Source of the DNA: Chrysomallon squamiferum
Taxonomy: Eukaryota > Animalia > Mollusca
DNA length: 64,000 nucleotides
Reading direction: 5' to 3'
Assembly (NCBI GenBank): GCA_012295275.1
Contig: CM022672.1
Span: 28,768,001 to 28,832,000 of the forward strand
Shown in pieces: positions 8,457-64,000 of this stretch (position 1 is the stretch's first letter; each line of letters starts with the position of its first letter). The position numbers were made by a program, and so were the translations under genes. Under the pieces are notes generated by a model. That model was not told the DNA's origin. It made no database searches and saw only the letters and a program-made list of their open reading frames with translations.

Positions 8457-8673
8457 AGTGTCCACACGACTTGACAAAGAACTGGCTGGTACTAAACAGT
8501 ATGTTTGTTCTCAGTGCAGCAAAGTGTTCACTCTTCATCACAATCTGCTACGACATCAGAGAAGTGTACACAGACAGGGATTCAACTTCAGCTGTGCATT
8601 TTGTGGCAAACTGTTCTTTAGAAAGGACCATTTGAACTTGCATCTGAAAGGAAAACACAACATCACAAATTAA
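8457..8673 (+). CDS. Alternative terminal exon P7: C2H2 zinc-finger pair
   Basis: Acceptor ccttttactttcAG ends 8456, phase 2. CSQCSKVFTLHHNLLRHQRSVH and CAFCGKLFFRKDHLNLHLKGKH. Confidence 0.87.
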
Positions 8674-10534: not shown

Positions 10535-10830
10535 GATCACTAATGCTAAGAAGAATGCAGATAATATTTACAAGAGTTTTTGAAATTTGAATTCATACCT
10601 TCCATTTGCTAATGAAGCAATCCTATGTGCTTCTTATGCGAAAAGACTTTAAGTAATGAATCATGAAACCTGCTAAATGAAAGACCACCTCAAAAAGATT
10701 CACTTTGCTAAGTAACGGAAAGATCTTAGTTTAATAAAAAAAAAAATGCTGAATGAAAAAAAAAGAAGGGAAATCTGGCAAATGTTAAAAGTAAATACAC
10801 AGCTATCAGTTCATTGACAACTATGACTGA
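10535..10830 (+). mobile_element. Decayed hAT (Buster/Charlie-like) transposase 5' fragment with BED finger
   Basis: Frameshifted hand translation gives ...EFLKFEFIP...PMCFLCEKTLSNES.KPAK.KDHLKKIH, matching the Buster/ZBED5-type BED motif C..C...LSNESMKP.KL..HL...H. Boundaries approximate. Confidence 0.6.
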
Positions 10831-12032
10831 GAGGGTGTTGAGTATGGACTGGCTGTATCTCGGCTGGTTGGTTCATTGGGAAAAATTATGAGCTTTGGTA
10901 CTGAGCTTAGCCACAACACAGATTTTCATTATGTACTTTAAAACAAAGCAACAGCTAAGCTAAAATGTTTTAAAATGTTATAAAGACTACATTGCTAATG
11001 ATGAATAATATAGTTAATACTTTATTAAGTATTTTAAAAAAATAGAGCATATGAGGAAAGAACATTTAAATCAATTCATTTATGCGAAAACAGGTATTAC
11101 ACTGGTCCATTATGTTTTGATTCCAACGAATGATAAATTATTGTAGCTGTGTTATCATCATGTTTCACTAAAGTTCAAATAGCATATAAAATAAATAGAC
11201 AAATGAAAAAGAAAAAAAACCCACTTTGGAGAATTATGTTATAGGTCTTGCACTGACTAATGGTACCTGAAACCTCTTGGAACTAAATGTGGCAATTTGC
11301 AAACAAGCTGCAAAACTTCATCATACTCAACTTCTTGTGTTTATCTTGATGATGACTATGAAGAATCAGAGAAAGTGTTTTCAGATTTTTTGAAAAATAG
11401 AATCACATACAACAACCTTTTTACCCTGCCTTTAAGAATGGATCAGCACTGCATAATATGACCCAAATGTTTGAAAATATATCTTGAAATGGTTGACAAT
11501 CATAGCACTGCAATATGAAATGCTCCATTCTTTGTTAGCAAAGAAATGTAATCTTAGTTCATACTTTCCACATAATGTTGATACTGTGTGAGCTTAAATT
11601 ACATAATTCACATCAATGGTGTCAAGTCTCTTATCGGTTATTCACACAAAAATTCATATTTTGGCTCCTAGGTGTCACTTTCATACCTGAATAATACATT
11701 CATAGCATCTAGGACAGACTGTTACGAGATAATTGTCCTGAGACAGCTTGCTGTCAGCTATTTTGAATTTATGCAGATTAGTAGTGTGATATTCAGAGAT
11801 AGAAAGTGTCATAAAAATTTCTAATGTAATTTTTTCTAGGTTACTTATAATCCTACTGGCCTCTCTCTCTCTCTCTCTCTTTCTCACACACACACACACA
11901 GACATTTTTTTGTTTGTTTTTGTTTTAATAAGGTTACAAGTTAGACTGATTAATAGTCTTACAGAATAAAAATCATTTAAAACAATTACTGGAAGCAACA
12001 AAAAGCAACTTTACATTCAACAAACATTATAC

Positions 12033-12033
<1 letters not shown>

Positions 12034-12073
<40 letters not shown>
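12034..12073. repeat. (TG)n microsatellite
   Basis: About 20 perfect TG units; a (CT)n/(CA)n run lies nearby at about 11860-11900. Confidence 0.95.
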
Positions 12074-12074
<1 letters not shown>

Positions 12075-12678
12075 CAGGCAATTTGTCCTTCCACTATGAC
12101 TTACTTTTCTGTAACTGGAAATAAATGATTTTACTTTAGTTTTTGGGCGTACAGGTGTTCAGCTTGTATATGTTAAGTTGAGTATATAACATTTTAATTT
12201 AAAATCACTTTCCATATTCATTCTTACCACAGTTGTTAGCAAATATGTAAATTAATCATTTTCAGATGTTTATATTTTGTTGAGAAATAGTTGATTAAAT
12301 AATTTGTAAACATAAACAGTATGTCTCTGGATGATTATTTTTATTTTCAGATTTTAAAAAAGGGTGCGTAGCATTCTTGTGATGAAATAAATTTCTTTAC
12401 AAGAAAAAAGTAACAGTTTAAAAAAAGAAATCATTCCTTTGGTCTCTCTGTGTAAGTCATCATATTTGTTTTTTTCTCTCTCTCACTTTTTTATTATTTA
12501 TTTAAATGCTAAAAACAAAGCAAGATCCATTACAACATTTTTTTTTTTTGAATCGATGATGCATTTACAGCAAACTTGATTGTGCCATTGGATGCATTTG
12601 CATATTCATTAATAATGTTTTGAAAATAGTCCAGTTGGAGTCTGTGTTGTTAATATGAGACAACTGTTCTGTTTTCAG

Positions 12679-12907
12679 GAGACCTAATAGAAGAGCTGTG
12701 AAATCAGCATTAAGGAACATGTCACATTTAAGTTTGCACATTTGTCCTACATGTGGCAAATCATTCACACAGCGTGGCACAATGAAGCGCCACCATCAAA
12801 GTGTGCACCAGAAAGTGGCAAGATTCCAGTGTCCATTCTGCAACAGGAAGTTTTCCAGAAACGATCACCTTGGTCAGCACATGGTCTACTGCAAACGGAA
12901 ACTTTGA
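12679..12907 (+). CDS. Alternative terminal exon P8: C2H2 + C2HC zinc-finger pair
   Basis: Acceptor gttctgttttcAG ends 12678, phase 2. CPTCGKSFTQRGTMKRHHQSVH and CPFCNRKFSRNDHLGQHMVYC. Confidence 0.88.
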
Positions 12908-15783
12908 ATGTATCTGTTAACTAATACATTAAGTTCTTGGATAACTAACTAAAGTTTTCTATGTGTTCAGCCACAGAACAATAAACTGAATCCATATTTA
13001 GATAATTATATAACCAGTTTCAGACAATGACATAAGAAAAAAAATAACAGGAACAAAAAAAAATATGTTTTCAAAGATTTGTCATCATAATAAATATGTT
13101 TAAAGAAAAGTGTTTGTGTGTAGGTAATTATATTGCTATTAAAAAAAGACAAAAATAAAATTTAAATTAAAGAACAGTTGAAAAATTAACAGAAAACGAT
13201 GCAGTGAAATACATGTAATACTGTACTTTTACTCTGGCTTAGAAGATGCTAATAAAAGTCAGCTTTAATTTGAAATATTCAAAAGTCATCAACATTCTGT
13301 TTTAAAGTGTAAAATACTGTATATATAAACACTCAGTAAAATATTTTCAAAAACACTGAATTAAAGAAATGTCATTGGAATTACAAAGTACCTTACATCA
13401 GTCAATAGGGGTATTTTCTCTGAATTATTAAAACTAGTATTTTAATATAGGTGTAATAGCATTGGTTATTAATTAGGCTGGTGGCTTGAAGAAGTTGTAA
13501 ATTTGCACAGGAATTTGTTAGAAATATATTTATCTGGTGGTGTTATACTATAATTATAAATAATTATAATTTTCTTTTTTTAATGTAATAAAATAGATTA
13601 ATATGTTAATAACTGATTGTTGAAAGTTAAACATTAATATACTTGAGATTTGTTCCCATTGTTGCAAGGAATATTATAAATGCATCTTTCCAGCAGAATA
13701 AGGAAAATATATATAAAATCTAGTGAATGCATGAACTAAGAGCAGATCACACACATGAAAATCACACATATTATTAATGCTTAAATAAAATAAAACCATA
13801 TTACCATTTAGAATCATTCTTTGAGTGCAGATTTTATGCTGAAAGGAAACTGATATAAATTTTATTACTTCAGATTTTCAGAGTCTGTCCATGTTGGAAC
13901 ATCACATGTATTAGCTGTGTAGACCAACATTATTCTTCAGAATCACAATGTACAGCATATACCAGCATAGGAATAGATTCTCATGTGAGATGTGTTCTTT
14001 CATTCCTAGAAGAAACAAAACAAAAGCAAAACCATTTTCATTCTATATTTTTATCATATATTCATAGTTGACTTTGAGGATTCTTTTTTAATTATGTAGT
14101 AGGATTTTTATTATTATTATTACTGCTCGTGTGATAAAGTTACAAAAACATTTCAGTTGCTGTTCTGATTTCATACTGTTACAATGAAGGAGTTTTCAGT
14201 TCTTAATATGACATCTACTTGATGTCAGTGGTTTTGAAAAAAGTAATGGAAAAAGTAGTGTATTTCAATACTGTTACCTATATTAGATTTTATACATATG
14301 ATATTGTATTTTCCTACAGTTGGTTTGTTGTACAATGCTCTCTGAATTCTGTTATCGCTTGCTATTCCAGTTTACATAATCTAATTGCAGTTATTCTGAT
14401 TGGTGTAACACTGTAATATCTAAGTAAAACACTGCAGTGTTTTCAAATCACACCCACCCAACAAAAAGCCCAATTGATGTCAAATATTCCTTCTCCTCAC
14501 TGACTACAAGTGTGTTCCAGTGTTTGTGAGGGCCTGCTTCTGATCATCCTGCACATCATACATACAAGAAATTTTTGTCAAACTTTGAACTGATTTACTG
14601 ATAATTTTAGGTGTTTCATGTATGCACTTTGGCATTTTGAGGTAAGACTGAGGCAGTTAATTTTAACAATTGATACAGCAGTCAGTTTTGTCCTGTCAGT
14701 ACTAACCCACACAAGTCTGGTGTGTTGTCAGCATTAGTCAGGTCAACACAGTTATCACAGTATTTGAAACCAGGATTTTCCTTTCAGTGTCCCACCAAAT
14801 ACTTTTTATCCCTAGTGAAGCATACACAGAATTTCATAAGATTCTTTAATGGGATATTTCAATCAGTCTTCTGCCATTAGCTTAAGGCTCTGATAATACT
14901 TACCAGAAAAGAAATGAGTTCCTGATGATGCAGTGAGAACACACCATTTTGGGCACAAAGCTGAGAATGAAGAAAATCCATTCTTCTTTTCAGGATAGGA
15001 TTCGTTTCAAAAAGAATAAATCTCCTTGAGATTCAGTAATATGAACCACTTGTGATGTTTTCACTATTCTCATTATGAATATTCTCAGAATCCTTCATTT
15101 CAGAACTACTTTCATTAAAACTAATAATGTCATTTTTTTCTGATAAAACCTATCTGGTTCTTATCACATTATCCTAATATACCCTTCTGCTTTTTTTTTT
15201 TGATACAGTGTTATTTTTCACCAAAAGGTTTGTGGCACCAAATTTTTCATAATCCCATCTTTCTTCTAATATCACAACACAGGTAGTGTTAAACAAGATA
15301 TTAAAACTATGATACATTTTCCTACCACATTATAGTGTATTTTGTACATTAATGCACATTAATTAGCGAGGTTAATATTTTAGATTTTGACTAGTTATAA
15401 CAAGAACACATTATACACAACTGAAGATGGGAAGGTTATACCCACTGAATGATTTTATGTGGAATATCCCTATAGTTTGTGCAAATAATGTCATAAACTT
15501 CCTGTATAAGTACACTGTGAAACAAGGTGATGTGTACTTTAGATATATATTACTTTAGTATATAAATAGCCTGCAGATACTGCTAATAGTTTCGTGCTAT
15601 TAAATTGATATATAAATAATCTTTTGATATTAAACTAATATATACATATATTGTGTACAATTTTCCATTTACAATCATATATAAACAAATATATAATAGT
15701 TTCTATACACTGACTTGATAGTTAGCATTCAGATATTGATGTGTAAACAGTTCTGTGATTTTAAGTCCTATTTTGTATTTCAG

Positions 15784-16012
15784 AATGTGCTGTGCTATCT
15801 CTAAACAACACGATTCAACAACTTGCATTTACAAATGTCCAGAATGTCAGCGTCCATTTGGTTTCAACCATTCTCTTTTGCGACACATTCGCTGTGTGCA
15901 TCAGCGAATAAAAAACTTTCCCTGTAACAAGTGTGGAAAACGATTTACTCGAAGTGATGTTCTCAACAAACACATGGGCACTTGTACTCAGACATTTCAT
16001 AGCTCTAACTGA
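15784..16012 (+). CDS. Alternative terminal exon P9: C2H2 + C2HC zinc-finger pair
   Basis: Acceptor ttttgtatttcAG ends 15783, phase 2. CPECQRPFGFNHSLLRHIRCVH and CNKCGKRFTRSDVLNKHMGTC. Confidence 0.88.
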
Positions 16013-17692
16013 TTTCTAGCTGAGGAAATGATAATAATTACAATCATCTAGCAGAATGTGAAAAATAGTGATAAAAAAAAAGAGTTTAAAATGTGACTGT
16101 TTTAGGAAAGATTAAATACACCAGAAGAAAGCATGTCCATATACTATTGAAAGCAGTGTCTGGTTAAAGTATTAGACCATTACAAAGATGTTAAACAGAG
16201 TTGTTACATTCAGACACTGTGGTAAAGTGTGAAAATCAAAATAAGAGATTTATTTGTTATCTATCTAGATTCAAAAACATTCAAAACAGAAATATTTAAT
16301 TCTAAAATATTTCATATTACTTCAATTCTGTTCCTTGCTTTACTTTGTTTTTGTAAATGATGAAGATAACTGTTCGTGTGGCAGAACTGTCTTTTGTATG
16401 AGCAGAACACCTCTGAAGATATCTTACCTGGGAAAATAATAATCAAGACAATGTATTAATAACTAAACACACATACACACATATACACACACATACACAT
16501 ATAAACACATACACACATGCACATATACACACACATACACACAAACACACATTTGACCTGATGTACGTATAATCCTAGCCTGTTGTTACTTTTGGAGTAG
16601 CTGTTTTCTAGGCAATAAATTGTAGCCCTTTGATGTGATGTTTTTTCCATTTAGGAATGTGTGTAAGAAAAAACAATTTACCAAATACCTGACAGCTATG
16701 TTTTACATTTCTGATATTAAACAATCCAATATTAATAATAAACAATCCAAGACATTAATAATTGTTTAGAGTTCATTGTAATCTTTAGAAAATATTAATT
16801 GTTATTATTGTGAAAAATATGTCTTTACTAAATCCTCTTTTTATTATTTATGTGTTCATTATAGAAATATACAACATATTACTATTGTGACAAGCCAGTA
16901 TTGGTACAGGGTGGTGAATAATGTGGTGCATAGCATGAAGGTCAAAGTTGGAAAAAGATTTTGTCCCAAATTTTCTTTGAAATGACATAGTATTTATCAT
17001 TACAATAGAAAAAATCGGTAATGAATTTAGCAACCTTTTTTTCATCCATGGCCTTCTAGGCAAAGACACAGAATAGGGCCTCAACATACACAAGCACAAA
17101 AAGTTACTGACAGCAATCCACAACATATATAATAAACTGCATGGGACCCTAGTTGAACAGACAATTCAGTAAATGCTGAATCATAAAATGGTGTGATTAA
17201 TATATAATGATACCAAATATTTGCTAGTTTTTTCATCAACAGATATATATATATATATAGTTGTGATGTTAAATTTGTTGATTTTATCTTGGAGGATTTT
17301 TCTGCTGTCTATAAAATTCAGGATATGTTATTCTGTTAGATGTGTTTATTTATTTATTATATCTTTTTCATTTTATTTATTTATTTATTTTTATTATTTT
17401 TTTTTTTTTTTTTTTTTTCAATTTTAGCTTATAATTGAAAATGTATAATTCACAAATATTTATCTAATACTGACAAATTCCACTCTTATGATAAATGAAT
17501 TTCTGTTCTGTGCTATTTTTTAATTGATATTATGGTATAAGTATTTATAATCATCATTATATCATTTCAAGATAATCCAGACAAAATGCCACAGCTAAAT
17601 AATATATTATTAGCAGCATGTATAAGGGACTTATGTGTTTTGTTTATTTCAATAATAATTAAAGTATTATTTTCATTCTTTTTTCTTTTCAG

Positions 17693-18008
17693 GACACTTC
17701 AAAAAAGATTAAGGCAAATAAATAAAATTAATAAGGGAAGTAAGAATTTTCATCCATTTTCTTGTTTTGTTTGTTCCAAATTGTTCACCTACCGCTCAGC
17801 TTTAGTACGTCATCAGCGCACCCTGCATCAACAACAGAAGAAAAGATTTCTGTGCACTTTCTGTGAGGCATCATTCAGTCGTCAAGACAACCTCACTCAG
17901 CATGCTAAAATACACAGACCATGCAGTCACTGTGGCAAAATATCACTCAGCAGTGAAGAGTGGAAAAAACATTTAAAGGAGCATTTTCAATTACAAAAAC
18001 AAATTTAA
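17693..18008 (+). CDS. Alternative terminal exon P10 (last of + array): three C2H2 fingers
   Basis: Acceptor ttcttttttcttttcAG ends 17692, phase 2. CFVC..HQRTLH, CTFC..HAKIH, CSHC..HLKEH. AATAAA overlaps the stop (18007-18012). Confidence 0.87.
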
Positions 18009-18276
18009 TAAACTGTACTAGCTTTCAGAATTAAAAAACAATTATGTTTTAAATGATTGCTATTGCTTTTTTCTGAATATTGATGAGATTGAAACCAAAT
18101 ATTTCCCAGTAATTCAGGAGCTGCATAAGAATTAATGGGGCTGAACAACTTCTGGCATTTGCTTATCCAATCCAAATTTAAAGGTGAACATCTCAACAAT
18201 GTTAAAGTGCATTTAGCTGATCAGGACACAGATACAGGAAGCAGCATTCTTTTATTTTTATAAAATTAGCTCAGTA

Positions 18277-18640
18277 GTGTTAACAAAAGAGAAAGACAAG
18301 CTAGTTTATAAAGAATATACTAATATTGAAAGTGAATGTTTTTATCAGAAAAATCATGTGATAAAGAGGAAAAGTTGGCCAAAACTTGTAGATATGGAAA
18401 ATGACAAAATGAATAATTTTCAGATGGTTGTGCCAGAAATTATTGACAGGACATTCTGAGTTTGAGTCACAAAGGTTTGTTTGAGGGTAATGTAGGATGT
18501 ATGAATAGGCTTATATTGCATGGGTTTTTTTATTGACTGGGCATATATACTGACACAAATATGCTAACTAAATATCAAGTGGCAGGTAAGCCCAATCAGG
18601 TAATTCCTCCAGCACCTATGAAATTAATTCCAAATACATT
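18277..18640 (+). mobile_element. Gypsy LTR-retrotransposon pol relic (integrase zinc-binding region)
   Basis: Fragments QMVVPE...LSLSH... and YQVAGKPNQVIPPAPMKLIP match the Gypsy integrase motif CQ.VGKPNQ.IPPAPL.PIP; interrupted by stops/frameshifts. Confidence 0.72.
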
Positions 18641-19064
18641 TTGTGGAGGTCTTGAAACAAATCTGGATGTAAAGATCCTCAATCAAGTACCACTTTATTT
18701 GGATGTCAGTATGATGAGGTCTCTGGTGTGCATTCTTCGATGCCAAATCTTTACTTTTTCAGTGGAAAATACTAATAGGTTTACAGCCAGCTGCTGAATT
18801 TCACCAGACTGCTGTGATGTTCTGGCTTCATGTGTAGTCAGTGCAATATTTCATCTTTTCAATATGTACAGAACAGGACGTAGTTTGTCAGGTTCATCCT
18901 CCTCCATCTCTTAACTGTGGCAGAAGTGGACAGATGTTGTAATTGTTGTTATGACTGTATTTATATGTATGTTTTACTTAAATGTGTAAATAAAATTTCT
19001 TATTTGATGTAATTTTGATTTCTCTTATTTGACTTTAAAATAAGCTGCTTTCGTATTTAATATA

Positions 19065-27087: not shown

Positions 27088-27441
27088 TTATTCATCACCT
27101 TTGATCTTTATTTTTGGCAGTGTTTTTTTATGATACATTAATCCACATATTGATCTATAATGTTTGCCACAATTCTTGCACTTGAGAAGTCCAGCATGTC
27201 CTTTCAGGTGATAAATCAAGTGACTTTTATCTGAGAATGTGCATGGACAGAGGTGACACTTGAGATAGTTTCCTGTGTGTGTCATTTCATGCCTTGCTAG
27301 GTCAGATTTCCGAAGAGTTTGGTAATCACAAAATACACATTTGTGTATCTTTCTACCAAGGTGAAAGGTCTTCTTTGAGTGAAAGTGTTTTGAAACACAG
27401 CGGTTCCTTTTGTCTAATCCTCCACCACGGACAGGCATGTT
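27088..27441 (-). CDS. Alternative terminal exon M6: three zinc fingers (third lacks last ligand as assembled)
   Basis: Acceptor ttttctttcttcactgCAG then AAC ATG, phase 0. CVFC..HEMTH, CHLC..HLKGH, CKNC..H. Confidence 0.87.
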   Translation of the reverse strand, partial: NMPVRGGGLDKRNRCVSKHFHSKKTFHLGRKIHKCVFCDYQTLRKSDLARHEMTHTGNYLKCHLCPCTFSDKSHLIYHLKGHAGLLKCKNCGKHYRSICGLMYHKKTLPKIKIKGDE

Positions 27442-31620: not shown

Positions 31621-31729
31621 CAATATAAATAGTAATTTCTTACTGTACATTGTCTGAGTTTTTAAGGTGAAAGTGTAAAAGATTTTTTTAACATGCACTT
31701 TCACACCAGACACATATCTTCTTTCATAC

Positions 31730-32518
31730 AAGTTTTGTAGAAAAAGAAAATCCAAATCTCATTCGTACTTATTGCTTTCTACATAGAGAAGTTCTTGTTT
31801 CAAAAATATCACAGGAAGATTTAAAGGTTGTGTTACATAAAGTTACTGGAATGGTCAATTATATAAAAAGTAGACCATTGAACTCACAATTAATTGAACA
31901 ACTAGGCAAAGTGATGAACTCTCAGCATGTTAAGTTATTAATGCACACTGAGGTTCGCTGGCTGTCAAAAGGCAAAGTACTAAATCGTGTTCACGAACTG
32001 CACAAGGAATTACTATCATTTTTTTCTCCAGGAAAAGCAGGAGAAATTCTGTGAATACCTTAGTTGCATCTTTGGATGTCTAAAATGGAATACCTAACAA
32101 ATATTTAGTGAACTAAATAAAACAAACAGTAGTATGCAAGGTAAAAACAAAAATATTCTCACTTCAACAGACAAGTTAGTTGCCCTCAAAAAGAAAATTG
32201 TGATTTGGAAAAAAAGAGCAATCACTGGTAATCTTGATATGTTCCCTTTATTGCGTTCTATCTGCATTTGAGAAATGATCCCTACTGTATTTACTTAAAG
32301 TCATTAAGGACAGAAAAGTATGATTGGATTAGAGATCCTTTCACAAATCATTCTTCCAGCATTGAACTTGACTTGCAGTTATGTGCTGTCCATGACTTGC
32401 CATGTTTCTATTTTGCAAAATTCAAATATTTTTCATATATATTCAGCCATGTGTGCCACTATTTTTTCATGTGTGGTCCAAGGTATGCCGCTGACAAAAA
32501 AAATGTTGAGAATCACTG
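31730..32518 (+). mobile_element. hAT (Buster/Charlie-like) transposase relic with right terminal repeat
   Basis: CFLHREVL...MVNYIKSRPLNSQL...LLMHTEVRWLSKGKVLNRVHEL matches Buster/ZBED5-type transposases. Ends TTGAGAATCACTG (reverse complement CAGTGATTCTCAA) followed by CTCTAAAT. Confidence 0.88.
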
Positions 32519-34180
32519 CTCTAAATAGTTTGTACACAAAATGTGGCTAGTTTTTTTTTTGTAACCAGTACCTTTCACATGCAACACATTATTGTGATAT
32601 AAATTGAAGCATCTGAAATATAGACATTACGCACAGTAAACATGAGGTAACATAGAGGACTAGATTGAATTGTAAGCTAGAAAGTGTTATATTTTAAACG
32701 CTAAACACATTTTTTAGTGAATGGTGGGTGGCATGTTTGAAATGTACATGGACTGGCAAACTCATGTCTCATTCTTTTGTGTACACAGGTGATGCAATGC
32801 AAGCTTCTAAGAGTAACATTTTACTAATATTTAAATATTAAACTTGACTAATGATTAAAAATTTTAAAGGTAACTTAGTTGGTATTTTTCAATCTCACCT
32901 TTCAGTCTGACCTATTGTCAACCAGCCTTTCAAGTTTTGTTCTCCAACTTTCTTTGTGATGTACTGAACTAAAGTAAGTATGTGATCGGATCATTAAAAT
33001 GGTAACTTTGTAGACATGAAATAAATGTATGATGACTCTCACCTTTTCATAAGAGTGAAGAATTAAACAAAAAATTAATCTAGATCAAAAGTATGTTTCT
33101 TATAATTGATGGTCATTGATGATCACCAGGCCCTGTGATTAACTGGTGTTACATTATTTCCTTCTTCTTCTTCTTTCTTTTTTGTCTTAGATCAAGTAAA
33201 ACCTACAATTTCCTACACCTTTGTAAGTTTTTTTTTAACATAAAAACTAGATTTCAACACTAGATACTAATAAAATAAAAACATATTTTTTTTTTTTTTT
33301 TACAACAGATTGTATGTAGTACACATTTAATGTTGGTTCACATTTTATCAAATAATTTTTTTCAACAAGAAACTGTTGTCACTGAAATGATAATCCTATG
33401 TGGTTTTTACTGTGTTTATAGTAAGCAAAAAGCATAAATAAAATGGTTTAATGGAAAGATGTTATTTCTTAAAAACAATCCTTAGAATTCCCTCTCTTAT
33501 ACTGTTATTATTTTTTAAAATATATGTTTTAAAAATTAACAACCATCAGTATTAAAGTTATGATCAGATAGATATCATCACTTACAAACTGCTTTTAGTT
33601 TTAACAATAACTGACTGCTGTTCATTATTTTTCAGTCAGTTTTTACAGGATTTTATTACTGTTTTCTTAAAGACAGAACAAACTTGCTATCTCTTGTTTA
33701 CAATGAAAATTAATGCTGCATAGGTAAAATCGATAAAACTTTATTTTTAATTTTTTTTGTTATCTTTAAAACAAATGATGGAACTTTAGCCTGTCCATAT
33801 TTTCTACTTTGCATCAAGTGTATTTAATACTTTAAAATAGTGATAGCAAACTGTAGCCTGCCTAATTACCTGAGACATTTTTTAGTAGGCTCTACACTTG
33901 ATGATGAACAATGTATTACTGAAAAAGCTGCCCATACCAGATTCAAACATCAAACAGCAAGTTAAAAGAGGAAGATCTGAAATGTCAACCACTGACATAT
34001 CTTTACCATCTTTTTAAGTGCACACATACTTTTGAAGAAATGCAAATCTGAAATTAGAAACTTTTGTCAGAGTTTGTTAACTTTGTTAATTTATTTCAAA
34101 TATAAATATGACATCATTAAAACAAATACTGACAAATAAGAAAAAATGCATCTTTAGGTGAGATGTAGATGTTAATATTT

Positions 34181-34582
34181 CTAATGATGTCTTTTCATGT
34201 GATGATTCAAAGTACAAACAGAACCGTATGTTTTTCCACAGTGATGACAATAGATCTTCCCTTCATGCCATCTAATGTGATAGTTGAGTTGTCCTTTATC
34301 TGAAAATCGTCGTGGACACAACTGACACTGAAGATAGTCACCAGTATGAACTCTAACATGTCTGGTGTAATTTCCTTTCAGTCTTGTCATATAGCCACAG
34401 GTTGAACAAGTGTACAATGTCCAGCGACGTGTAACTGATCTTGATGCACTCTGTGATCCAAATTTTCTAGTCCTTGTTGTACTAGTCAAGTAACTGAGAC
34501 TATCAGATTTGTTATCCTCAACAAACTCACAGTTTTGATAAAGTTTCTTCTTGCTGTTCTGGTGTTCAGATGAACTGAAGCT
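34181..34582 (-). CDS. Alternative terminal exon M5: three C2H2 fingers
   Basis: Acceptor ctttcttcccttCAG, phase 0. CSTC..HVRVH, CQLC..HIRWH, CHHC..HMKRH. Confidence 0.89.
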   Translation of the reverse strand, partial: SFSSSEHQNSKKKLYQNCEFVEDNKSDSLSYLTSTTRTRKFGSQSASRSVTRRWTLYTCSTCGYMTRLKGNYTRHVRVHTGDYLQCQLCPRRFSDKGQLNYHIRWHEGKIYCHHCGKTYGSVCTLNHHMKRHH

Positions 34583-36595: not shown

Positions 36596-37093
36596 TCAGA
36601 GAAAATGTTGAGTTCTTCTGTGATTGTGTAATCCAGAAATGGAGGTGTATTTCTTTCCACACACAGTGCACTGTAGTTTTCCTGCGTGGCCCATCATGTG
36701 ATAGGAAAGCTGTCCTTGGTCAGAGTACTTGCGAGGACAGAGAGGACAGAGAAAATAATCACCTGAGTGCACACGTTTGTGTTTTATTAGATTTGTGGTG
36801 TAAAAAGTCTCATAGCTACACTCATCACATTTGTGTAACCGTATTCTTGATTTGTTAGGAACGTCTTTCTTCCTTCGGGTTCTGTTCACAAAAGCACAAG
36901 ACCAGGCAGCTGGCTCTGGCTCTGTAACTCTGTTACTTTTGGAAGTCTGACTACAGCTCTGTAATCCTGCTAAACTCATCAGTTCTGCATTATTAACAAA
37001 ATAACCTGTCTTATTGACAAAGGATGAATCTTGTCCAACTCTTCTCATCTGCCCTCTGTTGTGTACAGAGATACAACCAAATAGTGAAGAACT
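36596..37093 (-). CDS. Alternative terminal exon M4: three C2H2 fingers
   Basis: Acceptor cctttgttctctgCAG, phase 0. CDEC..HKRVH, CPLC..HMMGH, CTVC..HRRTQH. Confidence 0.89.
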   Translation of the reverse strand, partial: SSSLFGCISVHNRGQMRRVGQDSSFVNKTGYFVNNAELMSLAGLQSCSQTSKSNRVTEPEPAAWSCAFVNRTRRKKDVPNKSRIRLHKCDECSYETFYTTNLIKHKRVHSGDYFLCPLCPRKYSDQGQLSYHMMGHAGKLQCTVCGKKYTSISGLHNHRRTQHFL

Positions 37094-38552: not shown

Positions 38553-38906
38553 TCAGTTTTGACAGTTTTTCCGGTGCAGATTTAATCCAGAAAAAGATCC
38601 ATATTTCTTTCCACACACATTACATTTGAGTTTTCCAGCATGACCTTGCAAATGATAGGACAATTGTCCTGCGTCTGAGTAACGTCGAGGACACAGGTGA
38701 CACTGTAGATACTCGCCCGAATGGATTCTCTTGTGTTTCAGCAGGTTAGTTGTATAGCGAGTCTCATAACCACACAGGTCACACTTGTGCATTTTCCTCT
38801 TCTTTATTGGAGTGATGTTTCTGTGTATGCTTATGTTCACTGATGTTCCTAACATGCTGCATGGTGCCTTAAATCTGGTAGAATGATTTCTGTATACAGA
38901 TGCTTT
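38553..38906 (-). CDS. Alternative terminal exon M3: C2H2, C2H2, C2HC fingers
   Basis: Acceptor ttttttccattctctgCAG, phase 0. Open frame KASVYRNHSTRFKAPCSMLG...; CDLC, CHLC, CNVC..HRKNC. Confidence 0.89.
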   Translation of the reverse strand, partial: KASVYRNHSTRFKAPCSMLGTSVNISIHRNITPIKKRKMHKCDLCGYETRYTTNLLKHKRIHSGEYLQCHLCPRRYSDAGQLSYHLQGHAGKLKCNVCGKKYGSFSGLNLHRKNCQN

Positions 38907-39677: not shown

Positions 39678-40013
39678 CTATCTGCAAACTTTTCTATGCC
39701 TCCACAAGGTAACTTTGGACATGAATTTACGAGTACATTTTGTACACATAAGTTCTCCTTTGTGTCCTTTCAGGTGATACACCAGGTTACCTTTGTCAGC
39801 AAACTGTTGTGTGCAGACGTGGCATTTATGTAAATTCCTTGTATGAGTTCTTTCATGCTTATCCATGTTAGAAAGGTTGTTTGTTTGATAGCTACAGAAC
39901 TGACATGAGAATAATCTTTTATATATAATTATAGGAGGTCCTGTTGCTGAATCTTTAACTACACGTTTGAAAATACAGCTTGCAACCTTTTCATGTGGGT
40001 GATCATGATTTGT
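39678..40013 (-). CDS. Alternative terminal exon M2: C2H2, C2H2, C2HC fingers
   Basis: Acceptor ttcttttgttttcaCAG, phase 0. CQFC..HERTH, CHVC..HLKGH, CTKC..HRKVC. Confidence 0.89.
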   Translation of the reverse strand, partial: TNHDHPHEKVASCIFKRVVKDSATGPPIIIYKRLFSCQFCSYQTNNLSNMDKHERTHTRNLHKCHVCTQQFADKGNLVYHLKGHKGELMCTKCTRKFMSKVTLWRHRKVCR

Positions 40014-42438: not shown

Positions 42439-42777
42439 CTATTTTAGACTGTATTTAACAAGGCAGTGTTTTTTTTTGTGTGTTCTCAAACCACCTGCTG
42501 ACATGAATGTTCTGTGACACACTTGACAAAATAGTTCACCTCTGTGTGCTTTCAGATGGTAGACAAGGTTACCCTTGTCAGCAAACTGTCTTGAACATTG
42601 AGTACATTTATGTAACTCCTTTGTATGTGTTCTGACATGTTTTTCCATATTATTTTTATGGTTGGATTGGTAACCACAGTAAGTACATCTGTATTTAACC
42701 CCACATGCATTGGACACTTTAGTTGTATTTTCTTGATGTTTTATGGACAGTCTACTGATCCACTGTGTTGAACAAGT
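42439..42777 (-). CDS. Alternative terminal exon M1: three C2H2 fingers
   Basis: Acceptor tttgtttttcaCAG, phase 0. CTYC..HVRTH, CTQC..HLKAH, CQVC..HKKKH. Confidence 0.89.
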   Translation of the reverse strand, partial: TCSTQWISRLSIKHQENTTKVSNACGVKYRCTYCGYQSNHKNNMEKHVRTHTKELHKCTQCSRQFADKGNLVYHLKAHRGELFCQVCHRTFMSAGGLRTHKKKHCLVKYSLK

Positions 42778-46538: not shown

Positions 46539-46861
46539 CTGTAAAGAGCTCAAATCAGAAGATGATGTGTTTACTGATGCAAACTGCTGATTTTCACCAC
46601 CACTACCATCCTCAGTATTTGACTTGGTGTCAAAACTGTCTATAAACAAAATGTCATCAGCCTCTTCTTTGATGTGTATATTATCAGGCAGACATAACCT
46701 TTCTGTACTAGTCTGTGATGTGGATGTGTCTGTAATTTCAGAATGTGACAAGGTTTCATTCCCCTGATGAACTGCTCTGTCACTGAGATAATTTCCTTCA
46801 GCCACAGAAACAATGTTTGTTGCAGCAGAAAATAAAGACTCCATTTCATTATCAGTTTTTT
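46539..46861 (-). CDS. Constant coding exon 2 (acidic/Ser-rich linker) ending in the common phase-0 donor
   Basis: Acceptor ttttgtttttcAG; joins the previous exon in frame (phase 1: ...PNKK-E-KTDNEMESLF). Contains IKEE (SUMO consensus). Donor CAG|GTACAG at 46539/46538, phase 0. Confidence 0.8.
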
Positions 46862-47122
46862 CTGAAAAACAAAATTTTTACTACCAAAATAATGCTATAA
46901 TAAAAAGCTTCAATATTTTCAGAATAAATTACTTAGAGAAATATTTGTTACAGTGTCTGCTTTAAAGATATGCTACATTTCACAGAGTATTAATATGTCC
47001 ATAAAGTAATGATAAAAAGTAAACAGTCCTTGTATTTTTTTAATACTAGGTGCATATTTTTGCTTTGAGTGCGGATGTATACATGAGAGAAATGCATGCA
47101 TTATTACTAGCACTATACAAAC

Positions 47123-47846
47123 CTTTCTTATTTGGAGCTGTTTCTTCTTGTACTGAACGTTTTCGACCTCTGTTATCTTCTGAGACAGTATCTGATGATG
47201 ATGTTATATGTTTTACATCTGACCCATCAAGATTTTCTGCATCAGCATCATTCACTGATGGAATAATAGCCATTACTGGACTGTTATGAGCTGCACTTGT
47301 TAAATACTGCACAGATTGTCGAGGTTGGATTGTTGTTGGTTGTTGCTGGAATGATGAGGTGGGTAATGAGTTTGTGTCAGGTCCACCAGCTGCAAAGGAT
47401 GATAAATTATTTCTTCTATTCTGTCTGAAAGACTGCTTGTACTGAGATGATGCCTCAAGAGAATGTAGTTTTTGCCTTGCTGATGACAGCTGATATGGAA
47501 TATTATTTGGTTGTGATTGTTCAGAACTCTCTCTCAGATGAATTGATGTTTCCTGGACTGTTCTTTGTGTATTTGTGTTATCTCTGAGCACTATATCAGA
47601 ATTATTTCTAACAGGTAATCGTTTCATAGTTTTGAAGGCTTTTACACAGTAACTCTCACTGATGACATCACCAGTGTTGTGAACCATCTCACTCAGAACA
47701 TAGCGTTCTTTTTTGTAATTGTCTATTTCTAAAGAAAGGTAACCACTCAATTCCACTGCCTGATCAAACTCTATATAGTCTCGACAGAATTTTTGCATTG
47801 CTTCCACAAACCTGGTGAAGAACTGGACAGAATACTGTTTATCCAT
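47123..47846 (-). CDS. Constant coding exon 1: N-terminal globular domain (~75 aa) plus low-complexity region and putative NLS
   Basis: Acceptor ttctcttctttttaaAG with exon start 47871; caaaATGG start at 47846. MDKQYSVQFFTRFVEAMQKFCRDYIEFDQAVELSGYLSLEIDNYKKERYVLSEMV... Donor AAG|GTTTGT at 47123/47122 (phase 1), 261-nt intron. RGRKR...KK basic cluster. Confidence 0.85.
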
Positions 47847-56266: not shown

Positions 56267-56626
56267 TCAGTGCCTGTGCAGCTTTCTATGTTTTCCCAGG
56301 CTTTGTGTTGAAGAATAGTTCTTGCCACAGATTTCACATTTTAACATGCCAGCATGTGCTTTTAAATGCCCATCAAGATGATTCTTTTCATAGAAGAACT
56401 TTGGACAGAGATGGCAGGAAAAGAAATCACCTGAATGTTTTCTCTTGTGCCTGTTCAGATTTGGAGCAAAGGATGTCTGGAAAGAACACTGATCACATTT
56501 GTAGCTTTTCTCACTGCTGCTGATAAAACGTCTGCCAGGTCGTGACAGTGGCATTCTGCCAAATTCTAGCAGGTTTGAATCCTGAGCTGATTCTCTTACA
56601 GATATTGCCTGATATGGTCGCCATCT
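56267..56626 (-). CDS. Alternative terminal exon U5: three C2H2 fingers (upstream of the constant region)
   Basis: Acceptor ttacttttcaCAG, phase 0. CDQC..HKRKH, CHLC..HLKAH, CEIC..HRKLH. Confidence 0.89.
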   Translation of the reverse strand, partial: RWRPYQAISVRESAQDSNLLEFGRMPLSRPGRRFISSSEKSYKCDQCSFQTSFAPNLNRHKRKHSGDFFSCHLCPKFFYEKNHLDGHLKAHAGMLKCEICGKNYSSTQSLGKHRKLHRH

Positions 56627-57422
56627 CTGTGAAAAGTAATAAACAACTGACATATTTATTAGCAGTTAATACTATCTACAATTATGTATTTAATTTGTTT
56701 AAAGCATACTTGCATAATCACATTTTTATTTTTGGACTTTATGATGTTCAAAACATATAATACTCTTGTAATGTTAAAAATCTTCATTTTAAGCAAAATA
56801 CATAAAAGCTAAAACTAATAATAAATATAATAATAATAATAAAAAAATGGTATTAATGAAAGTAAATAATAAATAAATAAATAGTAAAATAAAATAAAAT
56901 AAAAATTAAAAAATAGTAAAAAAGAAGACAAAATATTTAAAACATTTTACGACTCGTAAAATGTAAAAATGAATAAAAAAAAGAAGAAACTTGTCATTTA
57001 TATGTAATAAGGAAATAAGAAAAAGTATGTATTTATATATAAATGAAATAAAAATAAATATACAGTACAAAACTAAAATCTTCTGAAAGTCATATGGGAG
57101 AACAATAACAATATCTGAAGTAACACAGACATATTCAGATCAGAAGTAAATGAATTCAGTAATTCAGTGAAATGTTGCTTGTCCTTATAAAAATATTTTT
57201 GGTTTTGGTTTACACTGCTGCACAAAATCAAAAGTTCATTTCAAAGAGGAATAATGTTTTGTACACTGTTGAGCAATCAGTAGAAATTTATATTCTGTTT
57301 CATTATAGTGAAATAAGTACAGGATTTCCTATATGTTAATGTACAGCATAAAATGTTCTCACAAATTAAAAGGTTATTTTAAAAGGTATTATGAATTTTG
57401 TCAAACTTCAGGTTGTTATTTT

Positions 57423-57809
57423 TTAATGTGTTGTCCCAGATGTCATGAGCTGACCCGGATTATTGTGAGTTTTTCTGTGTTTTCCAAGTCCCTGCACTGA
57501 GGAGTAAGTCTTGCCACAGATTTCACAGTTTAAGGTACCAGCATGAGCCTTTAAGTGTCCTTCCAAATGATTCCGTTCATAGAAACCTTTAGAACATAGA
57601 TGACACCGAAACAAATCTCCAGTGTGTTTCCTTTTGTGTCTCATTAAATTTCCAGCAAAACACGACTGAAATGAACACTGATCACATCTGTAAATTTTTT
57701 CTGAGTCATTTATCTCCGCCTGTCTCCTCCGATGTCGTTCATATCTCTGAAAGTTGGACATATCCATAACTCCTCCCTGATTTTCTTCAACAAACGATGT
57801 TGTAATATT
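57423..57809 (-). CDS. Alternative terminal exon U4: three C2H2 fingers
   Basis: Acceptor ttttttttcttgatctctaCAG, phase 0. Open frame NITTSFVEENQGGVMDMS...; close paralog of U5. Confidence 0.89.
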   Translation of the reverse strand, partial: NITTSFVEENQGGVMDMSNFQRYERHRRRQAEINDSEKIYRCDQCSFQSCFAGNLMRHKRKHTGDLFRCHLCSKGFYERNHLEGHLKAHAGTLNCEICGKTYSSVQGLGKHRKTHNNPGQLMTSGTTH

Positions 57810-59177
57810 CTGTAGAGATCAAGAAAAAAAATTTAAGAAATGTGTCTAAATTAACTGTCCTTTCTCTCCATCATCTCTTATGTAAATATTAATAAATATT
57901 AAATATTAATTACAAAAATGAATTATTATTTCATGTTCATCATGACAAAGAATATCAAATGCAAACAAGCAATGTGCCTTTCCTGCCAATTTCATAAGAA
58001 GAAATATTCTGTTGTTAACTGAAATTTTCATTTAAGAATCTTGTGACTCTTTTTAAACTTAAATTTAAAATGGCTTCTATGCAAGAAAACAGAGGTATAG
58101 TGTTAGTGACTGAATATCATTATTACTGTAATGTACAAGGGTACTCTTTGTAACTGTCAATCTTTCAAATGTTTTTACATAAAAAACATATAACAAACCA
58201 AAATAAAAACATCTTGTAGGATACATTCTCATTGACTATTGCCCTTTATTGATATGACATTTATAAATAGATAACTTTTGGAAAAAATAAATTTAAGACT
58301 GTGATGTGCACTGAAATATTGTGTATATCAGAGATACTTGTCAATAATTTACCCTATTAAATGTTGAAACCCTCCATGCCATCTTAATAATTTAAATAAA
58401 AAACAACTTTGTCATATTTTGTAAACATAAAAACTACATCTAAATTAAAGCATAGATATGCAGTTTCTTGTTATAAAAAAGTTACATTTGAATTTTCAAA
58501 TATCACATTCAGGAAGATGTGAAAAAAGCTACTTACATTTTAAAATGACATCATAATAACAAAGAAAAACTAAAGAAAATGGGAAAAACAGATGTTTCTA
58601 CAGCCTGAAGTGACTAAATAGTACTACTACTACTAATAAAAATAAATAAATAAATAAATAAAATAAAACCTTACTATTCAGTAAACAAAATTCAGTGTTT
58701 CACAATTTTATTGAAAAACTTCAAAAATACAAACAGAAACTAAATACAGTTACTTTTAAAGTTATATTCTTTATTTGTTTTAAAGGAATTTTTTTTTAGA
58801 GCAATGCAATTTATACAAAAATCTTTCTTCTAATACAATCATGTTCAGTTAGAGTTACAACAAATTCTAAATTTTGTGTATACTGGAAATAAAACATTGC
58901 AGCACAAATACGAATTGGATAGTTTTGGCCATAACATTTGTTGATTCAAACTAATTGTTTATTCTACTTATAGTTCTTTTTCTCACAAGAACACACTGAT
59001 ATCTTAAAGTACACTCAATCCTGAAGGCTTGTAGTCAGACAAGTGTAATATAAAGCTCATCAGTGAGTCTTGCAACCACTAATGAACAGTGCTTTTTTCT
59101 CAGTGACATGTCCATTTACAAAAAAAACATAAAATACATTTGGGATTTCATGATAATGTGATCAAGACATGAAGAAA

Positions 59178-59507
59178 TTAATTTTTTTTATGGCTTTTAA
59201 CATGTCTAGATAAACCACTAAATGAAGAATAGTTTTGCCCACAAATTTTACACCGAAGCTGGCCTGCATGGGCTTTCAAATGGTATGCTAACTGTGTTTT
59301 GTAGGAGTAATGCCGTGGACATAAGTGACATTGGAAGAAGTCTCCTGTGTGGATTCGCTTGTGGGCGAGAAGATGTGCCTTGTACGCACTCTGATACTTG
59401 CACTGGTCACACTTGAACACGAACCTGTCCTGAGACACATACAAGTATTTTGCTGTCCAGTCATTAGCATGTGAAGCAGTACTTTTGTTCATTTCCCATC
59501 CAGGATC
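59178..59507 (-). CDS. Alternative terminal exon U3: three C2H2 fingers
   Basis: Acceptor ttattttcttCAG, phase 0. CDQC..HKRIH, CHLC..HLKAH, CKIC..HVKSH. Confidence 0.89.
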   Translation of the reverse strand, partial: DPGWEMNKSTASHANDWTAKYLYVSQDRFVFKCDQCKYQSAYKAHLLAHKRIHTGDFFQCHLCPRHYSYKTQLAYHLKAHAGQLRCKICGQNYSSFSGLSRHVKSHKKN

Positions 59508-60312
59508 CTGAAGAAAATAATTAAAATTTACTGTTATTTGTAGATGTGCCTTATCTTCACACGAAACAATGGAAATGTTACAATGAATTGTCTCATTTAT
59601 TAACAGCATTCTGGTGATTTAACACATTCAGTTCCATACATTTTTACAACACTACACAAGTTAGTTTCTTTTTCTGTGTGTATAAAGTTCAACTGTTTCA
59701 CTGTCATAGACATCTTCTATGATGAAATAAAGAATAAAGGAATATGTAATGTATAACTTCCAATAATTTGTATCAGTAATAAAGATAGCCAAAATGCACA
59801 TCCAGTGTGAAATTGTTTAGTTTAACAGGCAATATGAGGTATATAGATTTCATCCATTTAATTTCTAATAAATATGTGTTTTATTTTATTACTTTATTCA
59901 GAAAAAATAATTTTGCAATTATAAAAGAAAACAAAAATTATAACTATTTTATTATAAAAAGAAGGAAACTGAAATGACTTTTTTAAGAGATTGAATTAAC
60001 AACACGTCTTTGTAACATTTTTCATGCAAAGTTTGTTTAGGAAATAAGGACAAATATCTAACACCACTTTTCTTACATTAAAACACTTATTTTGAAATTA
60101 CAATAAAATGGTATATAATACTTTATAAAACATTATAATAAAAAACTGACTATCATTTGTATTCCCGTAAATAAATACAATAATTACATACATCCCAAAA
60201 TTGTTCATTCTATTCCCTCTGAATCCAGCTGTTATATAACAAATCATTTCATTTTTTTTTTTTATCCAACAATAATGAATCTAAAATAACCATACATGAA
60301 GATCTAACATTC

Positions 60313-60684
60313 TCAACAATAGTGCTGCAATCTCTTTTTATGTCTAGCTAAGCCACTGAAGGATGAATACTTCTGTCCACAAGTTCCACATTTCAGCAGT
60401 CCAGCATGAGCTTTCATGTGATACTCCAACTGTCTTCTGATAGAGAACATGCGAGGACAGATGTGACATTTAAAAAACTCTCCAGTGTGTTTCACCATGT
60501 GAGCCTTCAAACTGGAAGCATGGAAAGTCTCAAAGTTACACTGGCTGCACCGTTTTATATCCAAACCTTTGCGATTTCTGTCTCCCAGAGACATTGTTAA
60601 TTGATCTGAATTTGTAACTGATGTCCTTGAATACTGTCCTAATCCAGAGGGCTCAGGAAAAGATGAAGTAACTTGGTATGTATT
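60313..60684 (-). CDS. Alternative terminal exon U2: three C2H2 fingers
   Basis: Acceptor attcttttcttCAG, phase 0. CSQC..HMVKH, CHIC..HMKAH, CGTC..HKKRLQH. Confidence 0.89.
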   Translation of the reverse strand, partial: NTYQVTSSFPEPSGLGQYSRTSVTNSDQLTMSLGDRNRKGLDIKRCSQCNFETFHASSLKAHMVKHTGEFFKCHICPRMFSIRRQLEYHMKAHAGLLKCGTCGQKYSSFSGLARHKKRLQHYC

Positions 60685-63660
60685 CTGAAGAAAAGAATTA
60701 GGCCAAGCTAGTATAATGGACAATTTTGTGAAGAACAAGTCTATGAAAAATAATTAGAAAGAAAATAAATGTGCTTCATTTTATCTGTTAATAATAATAA
60801 TTATATACAGCAAAAATATTTAAAAGGCAGTTTTTTTTTATCACTAGCTCCAATGTATTGAAGATGTTTGGAATGTTTCAATTTAAAAACATTTATTATC
60901 TGATGCTAAGTTCCAAAGTATCTTTAACATCATTTGTTTTGTGAGAAACATGAGATACATTAATTTTCAAAGAAAGACAAAAGTAATAAACATTCAAAGT
61001 AAGGTGTCTTTTGCTAGAAAAAAGTAATTATGTAAACAAGCAGAAATCAGTTGTAGCCTCTAAACAAGAGATTGTTGAGTTGCTGCTTCACAGAAACTAC
61101 CTCACACACACACAAACAAAAACAAAGTAAAAACATCCAGATTCATTGTGAAGGTCAGTAAATTATTTTGCTGGGTCACCAATAAAAACAATAAATAAAA
61201 AAAGTAATAATAATAATAATAATAATAAAGTAAAATTAAATAAATAAAAAAAATTATAACAATAAATTAAGAATACCTATAAAATATTATTACAGGCTGA
61301 AGATCTACTGTTGAAAGGTATTTCACATTGTGAGGAGATAGCCTGAGAATAGGAACACAGAAGTCATTTACATTTTATAAGCAGTTTATACTGATAATCT
61401 GAAGACACACATGTACACACACAATAATAATTTAGTGCAGATATAAAAGTTTGAGTACACTAAACCATCTGAAAGCTGTAAGAAATTAATTATCTAGGAA
61501 ATCATATTTATCTGCAGTTTGTTAGAGTGCAGTATACTGTTCTTGAAGAATACAGTTAAAAAGCAATGATTTCACTATTAGTTTTTTTATTAGGACTCTG
61601 AAGAAACCAGTCAACTGATATAGTTAAATAATTCAGTAACAGCAAAAATCAGATTATATGACCAATTAAAAATCGCTTTATATATTACATAACACACATG
61701 GACACACACATGAAACAAAAGTAAAGTAAATATTAATCAGACAAATTATTATTGCAAATATTTATTTTATTTACTTCAAATCAATCAATAAAACTATTTT
61801 CATGATTAGCAGCATCAAAAATGTACATGAATAACAACAACTTTATCATAGCTGGAAATAAATTCTCATTATTTTTTTTTTTCTCAGTGTTGTGCACAAT
61901 CTAGTCATTTTTTTCCAGTGACATGAACAATGTTTCAATAACAGGTTAACATTATTTAAACTGTCTACTTACTTAGAAATGTAAGTAATAGAATTTAAAA
62001 AAATTACCATTCACAAACAGTAGTAATAGAAAGAAATTAAGTAAAGGCAATCTTTATTAACAAAATAATACTATCTGTACTATCAAACCACAAAATACTA
62101 TTGTATTTCAGAGCAATCAAAGTAACAGGAATGGAAAGAAAAGTGATTTTCTGTTTTTTAAAACAAAATTATTCAGTGAAAATGTATGGAAAAATAAATA
62201 ATCAAACTGGTTATAGTTTAATCAGATTATTTACTTTATTAACAGGGCAAGGAATAACTGAAAACAAACAGTAAGAAAACAGAAGAAAAAACTAAAAAAA
62301 AAAAAAAAAAAAGAAAAAGTAAAATTAATACTGATATATATATATATATATTTTTTTTTTTTTAAACTGTGTTTTCTCCTGTTGATACAAACAGAGATAC
62401 ATTTCACTGTTCTGTAGACCAACATGCACTTCTGACTATACATGCCAGCTATCATTCCAATAACAAAAAAGGGTTCCAGAAGATAAGTTCAGTATTAAGG
62501 GTGTGGTAATAATGGATGTTAGAATTAACAGCAATGGAATGGTCAGTACAGAAAAACTGTATGGTACTTTTAATTAGTGACAATTTAGATTTTATAAAAA
62601 AATTAAATTGAATTAAATTAAATTTAAAAAAAATTCTATATGTTATTATTTAGATTCTGTTGGTTTTGATATTTATTATTATTATTTTTTCAATCAAGAG
62701 ACATTTAAAGAAAGTTCATCTAATGATTGATATTTCCTTTTCCAGTTATTTGTTTTCAAAGAATGTTGATATGTTTGTTTCAAATGTAATAAGTTCTGAT
62801 TTTAACACAGTAAATCTGAGCTGATACTTAATTATTGTTGTGTAATCATACTAGCAATTAGACACAACTGAAATGGGACATCTCTGGTATTAATGAAAAA
62901 TAAATATTTGAATATCTGAATAAGTTTAAATATATTATCAATTCATTTTTTTATTTTTTTTTATTTTTAAACACTTTGGATTATCTATAAAGAAAAACTA
63001 CAGAGAACTTGTATCACAAAAACATTTGTTATTAATTTATTTTTATGCAGATCTCTACATTCATGACAAATTAATAATAATAATCTGTGTTCACATTCAT
63101 GACGGATTCTTTGTTACCTCAGTCCAACTAAACAAATCATACCATAACATCCCACTGTCACAGCAGTGCACAATAAATTTCTGTGAAAACATGCAACAGT
63201 ATTTTCTTAGAATGTGATTTACAAATTTTTACCTCATTTAACTGAAACAAAAAACACATACATCTGCAATGAATAATTCTTCCAGTTTACTTTATTACTA
63301 TTATTCTGTGTACAACAGAACATAATTATGTATGATATGGACTTTCCATCTCTCTTCAGGAAAAAACACACAACAAAATAAATATTTAATCAAATTTAAA
63401 AAAAAAAAAGGATAAAACAAAAATATTAATAAAAAAAGTAATAAAATAAAAATGATAATGATAATGAATTCTTTTCTTGTTCTTCTTGTTTTTTTATTTT
63501 TTTCACTATTTCTTATTATCTTCAAAACTTCTCACAATAATTCATCAAATGTGCCTATGTGTACACCAGTCCAAAAACATATAAACAGTAAGATTTCCCA
63601 AATTTACTGTAATTTTGCACACAAAAAAGTATGTAACTGTGGATATCAGTAAACATTTGC

Positions 63661-64000
63661 TCATGGATGATGATGGTGTTTCCTCTGATGGTATCTCAGT
63701 CCATAATAGGATGAATACTTCTTGTCACACAGCTTGCACTTGAGAATCCCTGCATGTCCCATCAGATGATAGTCCAGATGACTCTTGTCAGAAAACTTGC
63801 TAGTACACAAATGGCAGTGGAGATAATTTCCAGAGTGAACTCGCATGTGTCGTTCTAAATTTGTAGTTTTTATTGTCTGATAGCAACATAAACCACACTT
63901 GTGGATCAACCGCGAGCCCTTTTCTTTGGGGTGTTTCACAAACTCATTATTATCTCCCCAACTGTTCAAAGAATATCCTTCCCTTCCCAATGAACGAATC
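63661..64000 (-). CDS. Alternative terminal exon U1: three C2H2 fingers (5' end beyond window)
   Basis: Frame stays open to the window edge, so the acceptor is not visible. CGLC..HMRVH, CHLC..HLMGH, CKLC..HQRKH. Confidence 0.85.
   Translation of the reverse strand, partial: IRSLGREGYSLNSWGDNNEFVKHPKEKGSRLIHKCGLCCYQTIKTTNLERHMRVHSGNYLHCHLCTSKFSDKSHLDYHLMGHAGILKCKLCDKKYSSYYGLRYHQRKHHHHP

Follow-up and report, generated by a model that had tools for sequence, protein, structure and literature searches.

What stands at the front of a zinc-finger gene of the mollusc Chrysomallon squamiferum, in the position where an established effector domain would be expected, and what could it do there? The effector domains listed for C2H2 proteins in the available part of PMC12774644 are BTB, ZAD, SCAN and KRAB. 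The gene considered here lies in a stretch of 64,000 nucleotides (hereafter the window), and the original prediction described its N-terminus as a unit of about 75 residues that resembles none of these four and is shared by alternatively spliced finger isoforms. Our analysis places that gene in a larger set: many snail genes start with the same uncatalogued domain, spliced to many interchangeable DNA-binding ends.

The domain opens at a minus-strand ATG at 47846 and continues for 75 codons with zero stops, and the plus frame across 47620-47846 is interrupted by stops. The motifs first picked out in it, FFTRFVEAMQKFCRDYI, VELSGYLSLEID and ERYVLSEMV, are all found in the minus-strand peptide. 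Its predicted length also holds, as column identity among 29 representatives is 0.66-0.96 over residues 1-70, 0.52 at 71-80 and 0.12-0.31 at 81-200, a sharp fall after residue ~75. The gapless core found family-wide is residues 1-58 (31 diverse rows aligned), and segment 59-75 is weak or missing in some subfamilies. In a 104-row alignment, G35, D42 and E53 are invariant, and F9, Q18, C21 and F27 nearly so, C21 being the sole family-wide cysteine. Conservation in related species, on which the original prediction had staked itself, is found in related gastropods: identity to the best Gigantopelta aegis proteins is 95-97% over the domain, and the likely G. aegis orthologue, P0012, is 96% identical to the window protein in the domain and 50% in the linker. 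Judged from these alignments, residues 1-75 are a discrete, constrained and conserved domain.

The constant part of the gene amounts to 349 codons, and a splice acceptor likely lies immediately upstream of the ATG, which would put the exon start at about 47871 (Table 1). After residue 75 follows a linker with 44 Ser, 23 Asn, 23 Thr and 21 Gln among 274 residues, the Ser/Gln/Asn-rich region noticed earlier. The basic cluster, the KKEK completed across the splice and the IKEE noticed with it are all present; we take the cluster to be a likely bipartite nuclear localisation signal, and IKEE fits the SUMO-type consensus.

Table 1. Features of the domain-bearing gene, in window positions
Feature	Position	Strand	Details
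Unnamed N-terminal domain, residues 1-75	47620..47846	minus	core residues 1-58 = 47673-47846
First constant coding exon, domain and Ser/Asn/Thr/Gln-rich linker	47123..47846	minus	241 codons; RNA contigs cover 47123-47634 in X1-X3
Constant GT-AG intron, 261 nt	46862..47122	minus	joint 46861/47123 in RNA contigs X1, X2, X3
Second constant exon, holds IKEE	46539..46861	minus	phase-0 shared donor at its end
Basic cluster RGRKR...KK, KKEK completed across intron	47129..47171	minus	RGRKR = residues 226-230
IKEE	46662-46673	minus	within second constant exon
Alternative last exon 1, three C2H2 fingers	42439..42777	minus	in frame; 73% to G. aegis P0025
Alternative last exon 2, three C2H2 fingers	39678..40013	minus	joint 40013/46539 in X1, X4
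Alternative last exon 3, three C2H2 fingers	38553..38906	minus	in frame; 72% to G. aegis P0029
Alternative last exon 4, three C2H2 fingers	36596..37093	minus	joint 37093/46539 in X3, X4
Alternative last exon 5, three C2H2 fingers	34181..34582	minus	joint 34582/46539 in X1; 83% to G. aegis P0018
Alternative last exon 6, two pattern-matching C2H2 fingers and a degenerate third	27088..27441	minus	predicted acceptor in frame; 79% to G. aegis P0024

Across the isoforms the domain is fixed, and the DNA-binding end is exchanged through alternative last exons. All six of these exons continue the frame of the phase-0 shared donor, and among the RNA contig matches listed this donor is joined to at least three of the six (at 34582, 37093 and 40013). 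The RNA support consists of contigs from four runs (X1-X4) of a single study, the constant intron being bridged in three of the four; last exon 6 fell outside the stretch compared with RNA. Contig ends suggest joins to two further last exons, with the join itself unlisted in both cases: record 12 of X2 ends at 42777 (last exon 1), with 30 letters placed elsewhere, and record 24 of X4 ends at 38910 (last exon 3). The sharing of one domain by many finger isoforms, as originally proposed, thus appears in the RNA joints, and also in the 19 ends of the orthologous gene group in G. aegis. Six G. aegis isoform ends (P0021, P0024, P0026, P0027, P0028 and P0036) match last exon 6 at 65-79%, suggesting that one last exon, its counterpart, was duplicated locally in that species.

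The surroundings of the gene hold further finger exons. Upstream of it, the minus strand carries five more three-finger last exons (56267-63999), three of which best match ends of the G. aegis paralogue group P0011 (68-74%); these exons likely close a tandem paralogue, the constant exons of which fall outside the window. On the plus strand, 806-18008 contains ten mostly two-finger exons, which share 37-49% similarity with the ends of other G. aegis genes that bear the domain and which likely belong to a convergent family member with its front left of the window. In mod(mdg4), trans-splicing takes in even opposite-strand exons. The window locus, unlike mod(mdg4), gives no sign of this, since the best acceptors of nine of the ten plus-strand exons differ in phase from the phase-0 donor; the contigs are blind to interallelic trans-splicing. 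Over 47620-47846, some contigs from the same organism differ so as to encode K12 and E28, the residues of the G. aegis paralogues, and the domain bin has a summed contig depth several times that of the linker bin next to it; variants and depth alike reflect paralogous transcripts with near-identical domain DNA. Between finger exons, 31692-32550 (plus strand) holds broken transposase-like fragments, matched by many divergent RNA contigs, which we take from their motifs to be hAT-type, and short plus-strand frames at 18217-18797 resemble a decayed LTR-retrotransposon integrase region.

Could the domain belong to a known interaction family (BTB, ZAD, SCAN or a transposase multimerisation module) but have diverged too far for Pfam to recognise it? 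We consider this quite improbable. A Pfam search with the window domain returned 0 families at E up to 10, the confident match that could have overturned the original prediction being absent; searches with 19 members produced four unrelated matches, each seen in a single member (best E 0.008), and none of 109 scanned relatives matched over the domain, with the qualification that most matches above E 0.1 are discarded by the filters of HMMER. Profiles of BTB, SCAN and KRAB had no match over the domain in any of these sets. PDB sequences yielded 0 matches for the domain and 0 for a broad profile, and neither the window domain nor P0274 1-78 had a usable match in the ESM Atlas. Nine PDB sequence matches of A3 were rejected, all of them on the low-complexity tail. 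The Tramtrack motif FxL[RK]W occurs in 0/317 carriers, as does the ZAD-type CxxC..CxxC, the two CxxC pairs of ZAD being zinc-binding. SCAN is an all-helical domain, unlike the domain in its AlphaFold model, and KRAB proteins carry long C2H2 arrays, unlike most members of the present family. These sequence tests bear out the claim that the domain is none of the four. BTB domains span 100-120 residues and are built of five helices and three strands (PMC11426971, in the text available), which also differs from a conserved span of 58-75 residues with one predicted helix. RefSeq names of some carriers do include "BTB" or "SCAN", which could be read in favour of a hidden relative; these names follow the finger match, and BTB, SCAN and KRAB accessions are absent from the precomputed Pfam lists of carriers. 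A further point for a diverged known family is that the partner ends are largely of transposase-derived types, so that the front could be too. A description of the domain was not found in the open-access texts searched.

The predicted fold offers another view of the domain. An AlphaFold model built from the 104-row alignment (pLDDT 84.3, pTM 0.71; five models spanning 77.7-84.3) has a helix at 4-24, strands at 30-41 and 45-56, and short strands at 61-63 and 66-68, in agreement with the helix-then-strands reading of the original prediction. The predicted fold thus consists of one helix, followed by a long beta-hairpin and by short strands at the C-terminus. An earlier model, based on 19 close rows, consisted of helices alone (pLDDT 58) and was discarded. 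The helix bears a broad conserved hydrophobic stripe; of the two hairpin faces, one is hydrophobic throughout and the second in part, with a weighted hydrophobic fraction of 0.61-0.81 at positions 36, 38, 50 and 54. In the model, F9, F10, F13, M17, F20 and C21 of the helix would pack onto one hairpin face made up of V31, L33, L37, L39, I41, Y49, L51 and V55 together with the invariant G35/E53 pair, a pairing that we infer from a hairpin register set by hydrophobic alternation.

Searches with the good model, which had been suggested as a check, found 0 matches at E up to 0.001 in the PDB (Foldseek) and 0 at the same limit among viral structures. The best row of the wide VIA search was a pseudopilin (5bw0_B; Z 5.3, rmsd 3.1, 66 aligned), the only one of 48,161 at Z 5 or more, with 0 at Z 8, and a second VIA search reached at best Z 4.9. 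Among the structure rows shown (Foldseek PDB and VIA), no BTB, ZAD, SCAN or KRAB chain appeared, a result that speaks neither against kinship with these four nor for a new fold. Rows at Z 3.1-4.5 resemble PC4, PUR and Whirly proteins, including 2it9_A (Z 4.5, rmsd 3.0, 62 aligned) and PURA (8chv_B; Z 3.5, rmsd 4.0, 65 aligned), and would fit a sheet with single-stranded DNA or RNA as its ligand, next to the C-terminal DNA-binding end. However, such Z values lie within the background stated for the search tool, the helix comes first in the domain whereas PUR and PC4 repeats end in one, and of the four members whose core charge was counted (-3, -2, -2 and +3), three are net acidic. A nucleic-acid-binding sheet therefore seems the least probable of the readings that we considered.

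How widespread is the domain? A narrow profile, built from 19 close members, had 247 matches at E up to 0.001 (55 at 1e-10) in a library of 1,835,955,588 proteins, and the analysis drew on the best 150 of the 247, 116 of them new. Of 138 candidate proteins, 116 matched the domain: 87 from G. aegis, 10 from Haliotis and 19 without a name. Distant members are 21-36% identical. Eleven of the 20 clusters looked up were named, all from gastropods (Lottia, Patella, Haliotis, Nucella, Batillaria, Pomacea twice, Lymnaea, Biomphalaria, Physella and Plakobranchus), and a homologue search, its listing filled by G. aegis isoforms, added Aplysia, Bulinus and Candidula; among the matches listed for this narrow profile, every named carrier is a gastropod, from limpets to pulmonates. 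The domain is present as a single copy in 317 of 321 proteins. In 301 of these 317 carriers it starts no further in than residue 30 (285 by residue 10, 16 at 11-30), whereas 2 start at 31-60 and 14 beyond 60; these counts include isoforms and are not independent. A Pfam scan of 109 of the 116 new relatives (7 omitted for size) found a partner domain in 37: C2H2 in 17, DUF3504 in 10, HTH psq/CENP-B/Tc5/Tnp in 6, zf-Tnp_2 in 3 and FLYWCH in 1, with no Pfam match whatsoever in 71, many of them partial. The idea of an unnamed front of mollusc zinc-finger proteins thus stands as regards a real uncatalogued N-terminal domain and needs amendment in that the named carriers are gastropods and the partners extend beyond C2H2.

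The variety of ends is considerable. In G. aegis, 135 proteins sort by their N-terminus into 19 groups and have at least 134 distinct C-termini, BEN and psq ends among them, and all of these lie on one 91.7 Mb contig; isoform sets sharing one front also occur in Aplysia (4 ends), Pomacea (3) and Patella (2). Most ends consist of one to three fingers or one HTH. Linkers contain the SUMO-type motif [IV]KxE in 71/101 cases against 8.6 expected from shuffles, the sequences being related, and basic clusters in 25/101 against 5.2; PxDL[ST] is not enriched (3/101 linkers against 1.5). A set of vertnin-like proteins of 1,600-1,800 residues (P0203, P0219, P0236, P0280 and P0309-P0311), from limpet, abalone and heterobranchs, has the domain core at residues of about 92-113. 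The domain tree (57 rows, 75 columns) has a weak backbone with 17/53 branches open, and we used only its supported groups, one of which is a vertnin-like group spanning Lottia, Haliotis and heterobranchs (98/95); this span makes it likely that more than one subfamily predates the gastropod radiation.

We regard it as probable that the domain serves in self- and hetero-oligomerisation, as a convergent equivalent of the Tramtrack-type BTB domain of lola and mod(mdg4), a role suggested by architecture, surface pattern and paralogue conservation. Its single N-terminal copy, its partner types, the cassette layout and the hydrophobic second face all argue for association. In such a mechanism, the spare hydrophobic surface (Y36, S/C38, V50 and M54 on the second face, plus the strand edges) would pair with another copy, splice isoforms and paralogues would be joined into mixed complexes, and short two- or three-finger ends would thereby gain avidity and combinatorial specificity; the linker would likely add nuclear import and SUMO-dependent cofactor recruitment. 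Four G. aegis paralogues are 99-100% identical in the domain and 24-39% in the linker, as expected if partners must stay interchangeable, and gene conversion could be an alternative source of this near-identity in tandem paralogues. The monomer folds confidently alone (pLDDT 84, pTM 0.71), so an obligate oligomer is not required. A two-copy complex prediction scored 0.01 against a mark of 0.32, with the alignment unused and the chain fold uncertain, and weighs neither way; covariation, from a shallow alignment (160 rows, effective 79), was noise for inter-chain contacts. The architecture of the vertnin-like carriers, which differs, counts against association, as do the 71 relatives that lack any Pfam match.

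A dock for a cofactor would sit in the same position and be equally conserved. In a KRAB-like arrangement of this kind, a monomeric domain would recruit one conserved partner, a co-repressor, chromatin modifier or ubiquitin ligase, to the sites bound by the variable end, possibly to silence transposons or developmental genes, and the polar residues D42 and E53 (invariant) and Q18 (near-invariant) could make the partner site. The clustering of the expansion on one G. aegis contig recalls KRAB clusters, and the enrichment of the SUMO-type motif in linkers also fits. However, most ends here are short, a design served by the avidity of a multimer, and the divergence between subfamilies is much for one fixed partner. 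Docking is compatible with oligomerisation, since BTB does both; as a reading of its own we find it rather unlikely, if clearly less so than a diverged known family.

The closest parallel to an oligomerising front comes from arthropods. According to the available part of PMC11426971, insect BTB factors pair with C2H2, psq and FLYWCH ends, oligomerisation lets short DNA-binding ends gain affinity, Tramtrack-type factors form hexamers and broad heteromers with isoforms differing in their ends, and the Tramtrack motif was not found in Mollusca. Like these factors (lola, mod(mdg4), broad, GAF and pipsqueak), the gastropod proteins have a single conserved N-terminal domain, a long diverged linker, short ends of the same types, many isoforms and a lineage-specific expansion, and the window gene has the layout of lola and mod(mdg4), in which constant 5' exons are spliced to alternative last DNA-binding exons. 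Unlike them, the domain has no sequence or motif match to BTB and a smaller fold of one helix and a long hairpin, and hexamers and heteromers, demonstrated for the Tramtrack type, are for the gastropod domain a matter of inference. It thus most likely works as the Tramtrack-type BTB does while lying outside that family. As a lineage-restricted N-terminal module on clustered zinc-finger genes it also resembles ZAD, SCAN and KRAB, from which it differs in not being all-helical, in its non-C2H2 partners and in drawing diversity from alternative last exons as well as gene duplication; unlike ZAD, it has no four-cysteine zinc site. DUF3504 is Crypton-derived and occurs in ZMYM2-4, QRICH1 and long KCTD1. 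The window's subfamily is likewise joined to DUF3504 in Haliotis, Pomacea and Gigantopelta, with the gastropod domain as the front in place of MYM fingers or BTB.

The annotation of "BTB-" and "SCAN-containing-like" proteins that lack those domains is corrected, and longest-isoform filtering, used in the methods given in the available text of PMC12513265, would hide most ends of the family. The domain is only 58-75 residues long and easy to express, which makes the association claim directly testable, and the family is present in the model snails Aplysia, Lymnaea and Biomphalaria. The broader proposition could about equally well hold or fail: that gastropods evolved their own BTB equivalent, with hundreds of isoforms from about 20 clustered genes forming mixed oligomers and a combinatorial regulatory code, dating to the common ancestor of limpets, abalones, caenogastropods and pulmonates. 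If true, it would add a fifth effector domain, with a different predicted fold, to the four given for C2H2 proteins in the consulted part of PMC12774644, and the design of lola, in which one interaction front serves many swappable ends, would have arisen again from different parts.
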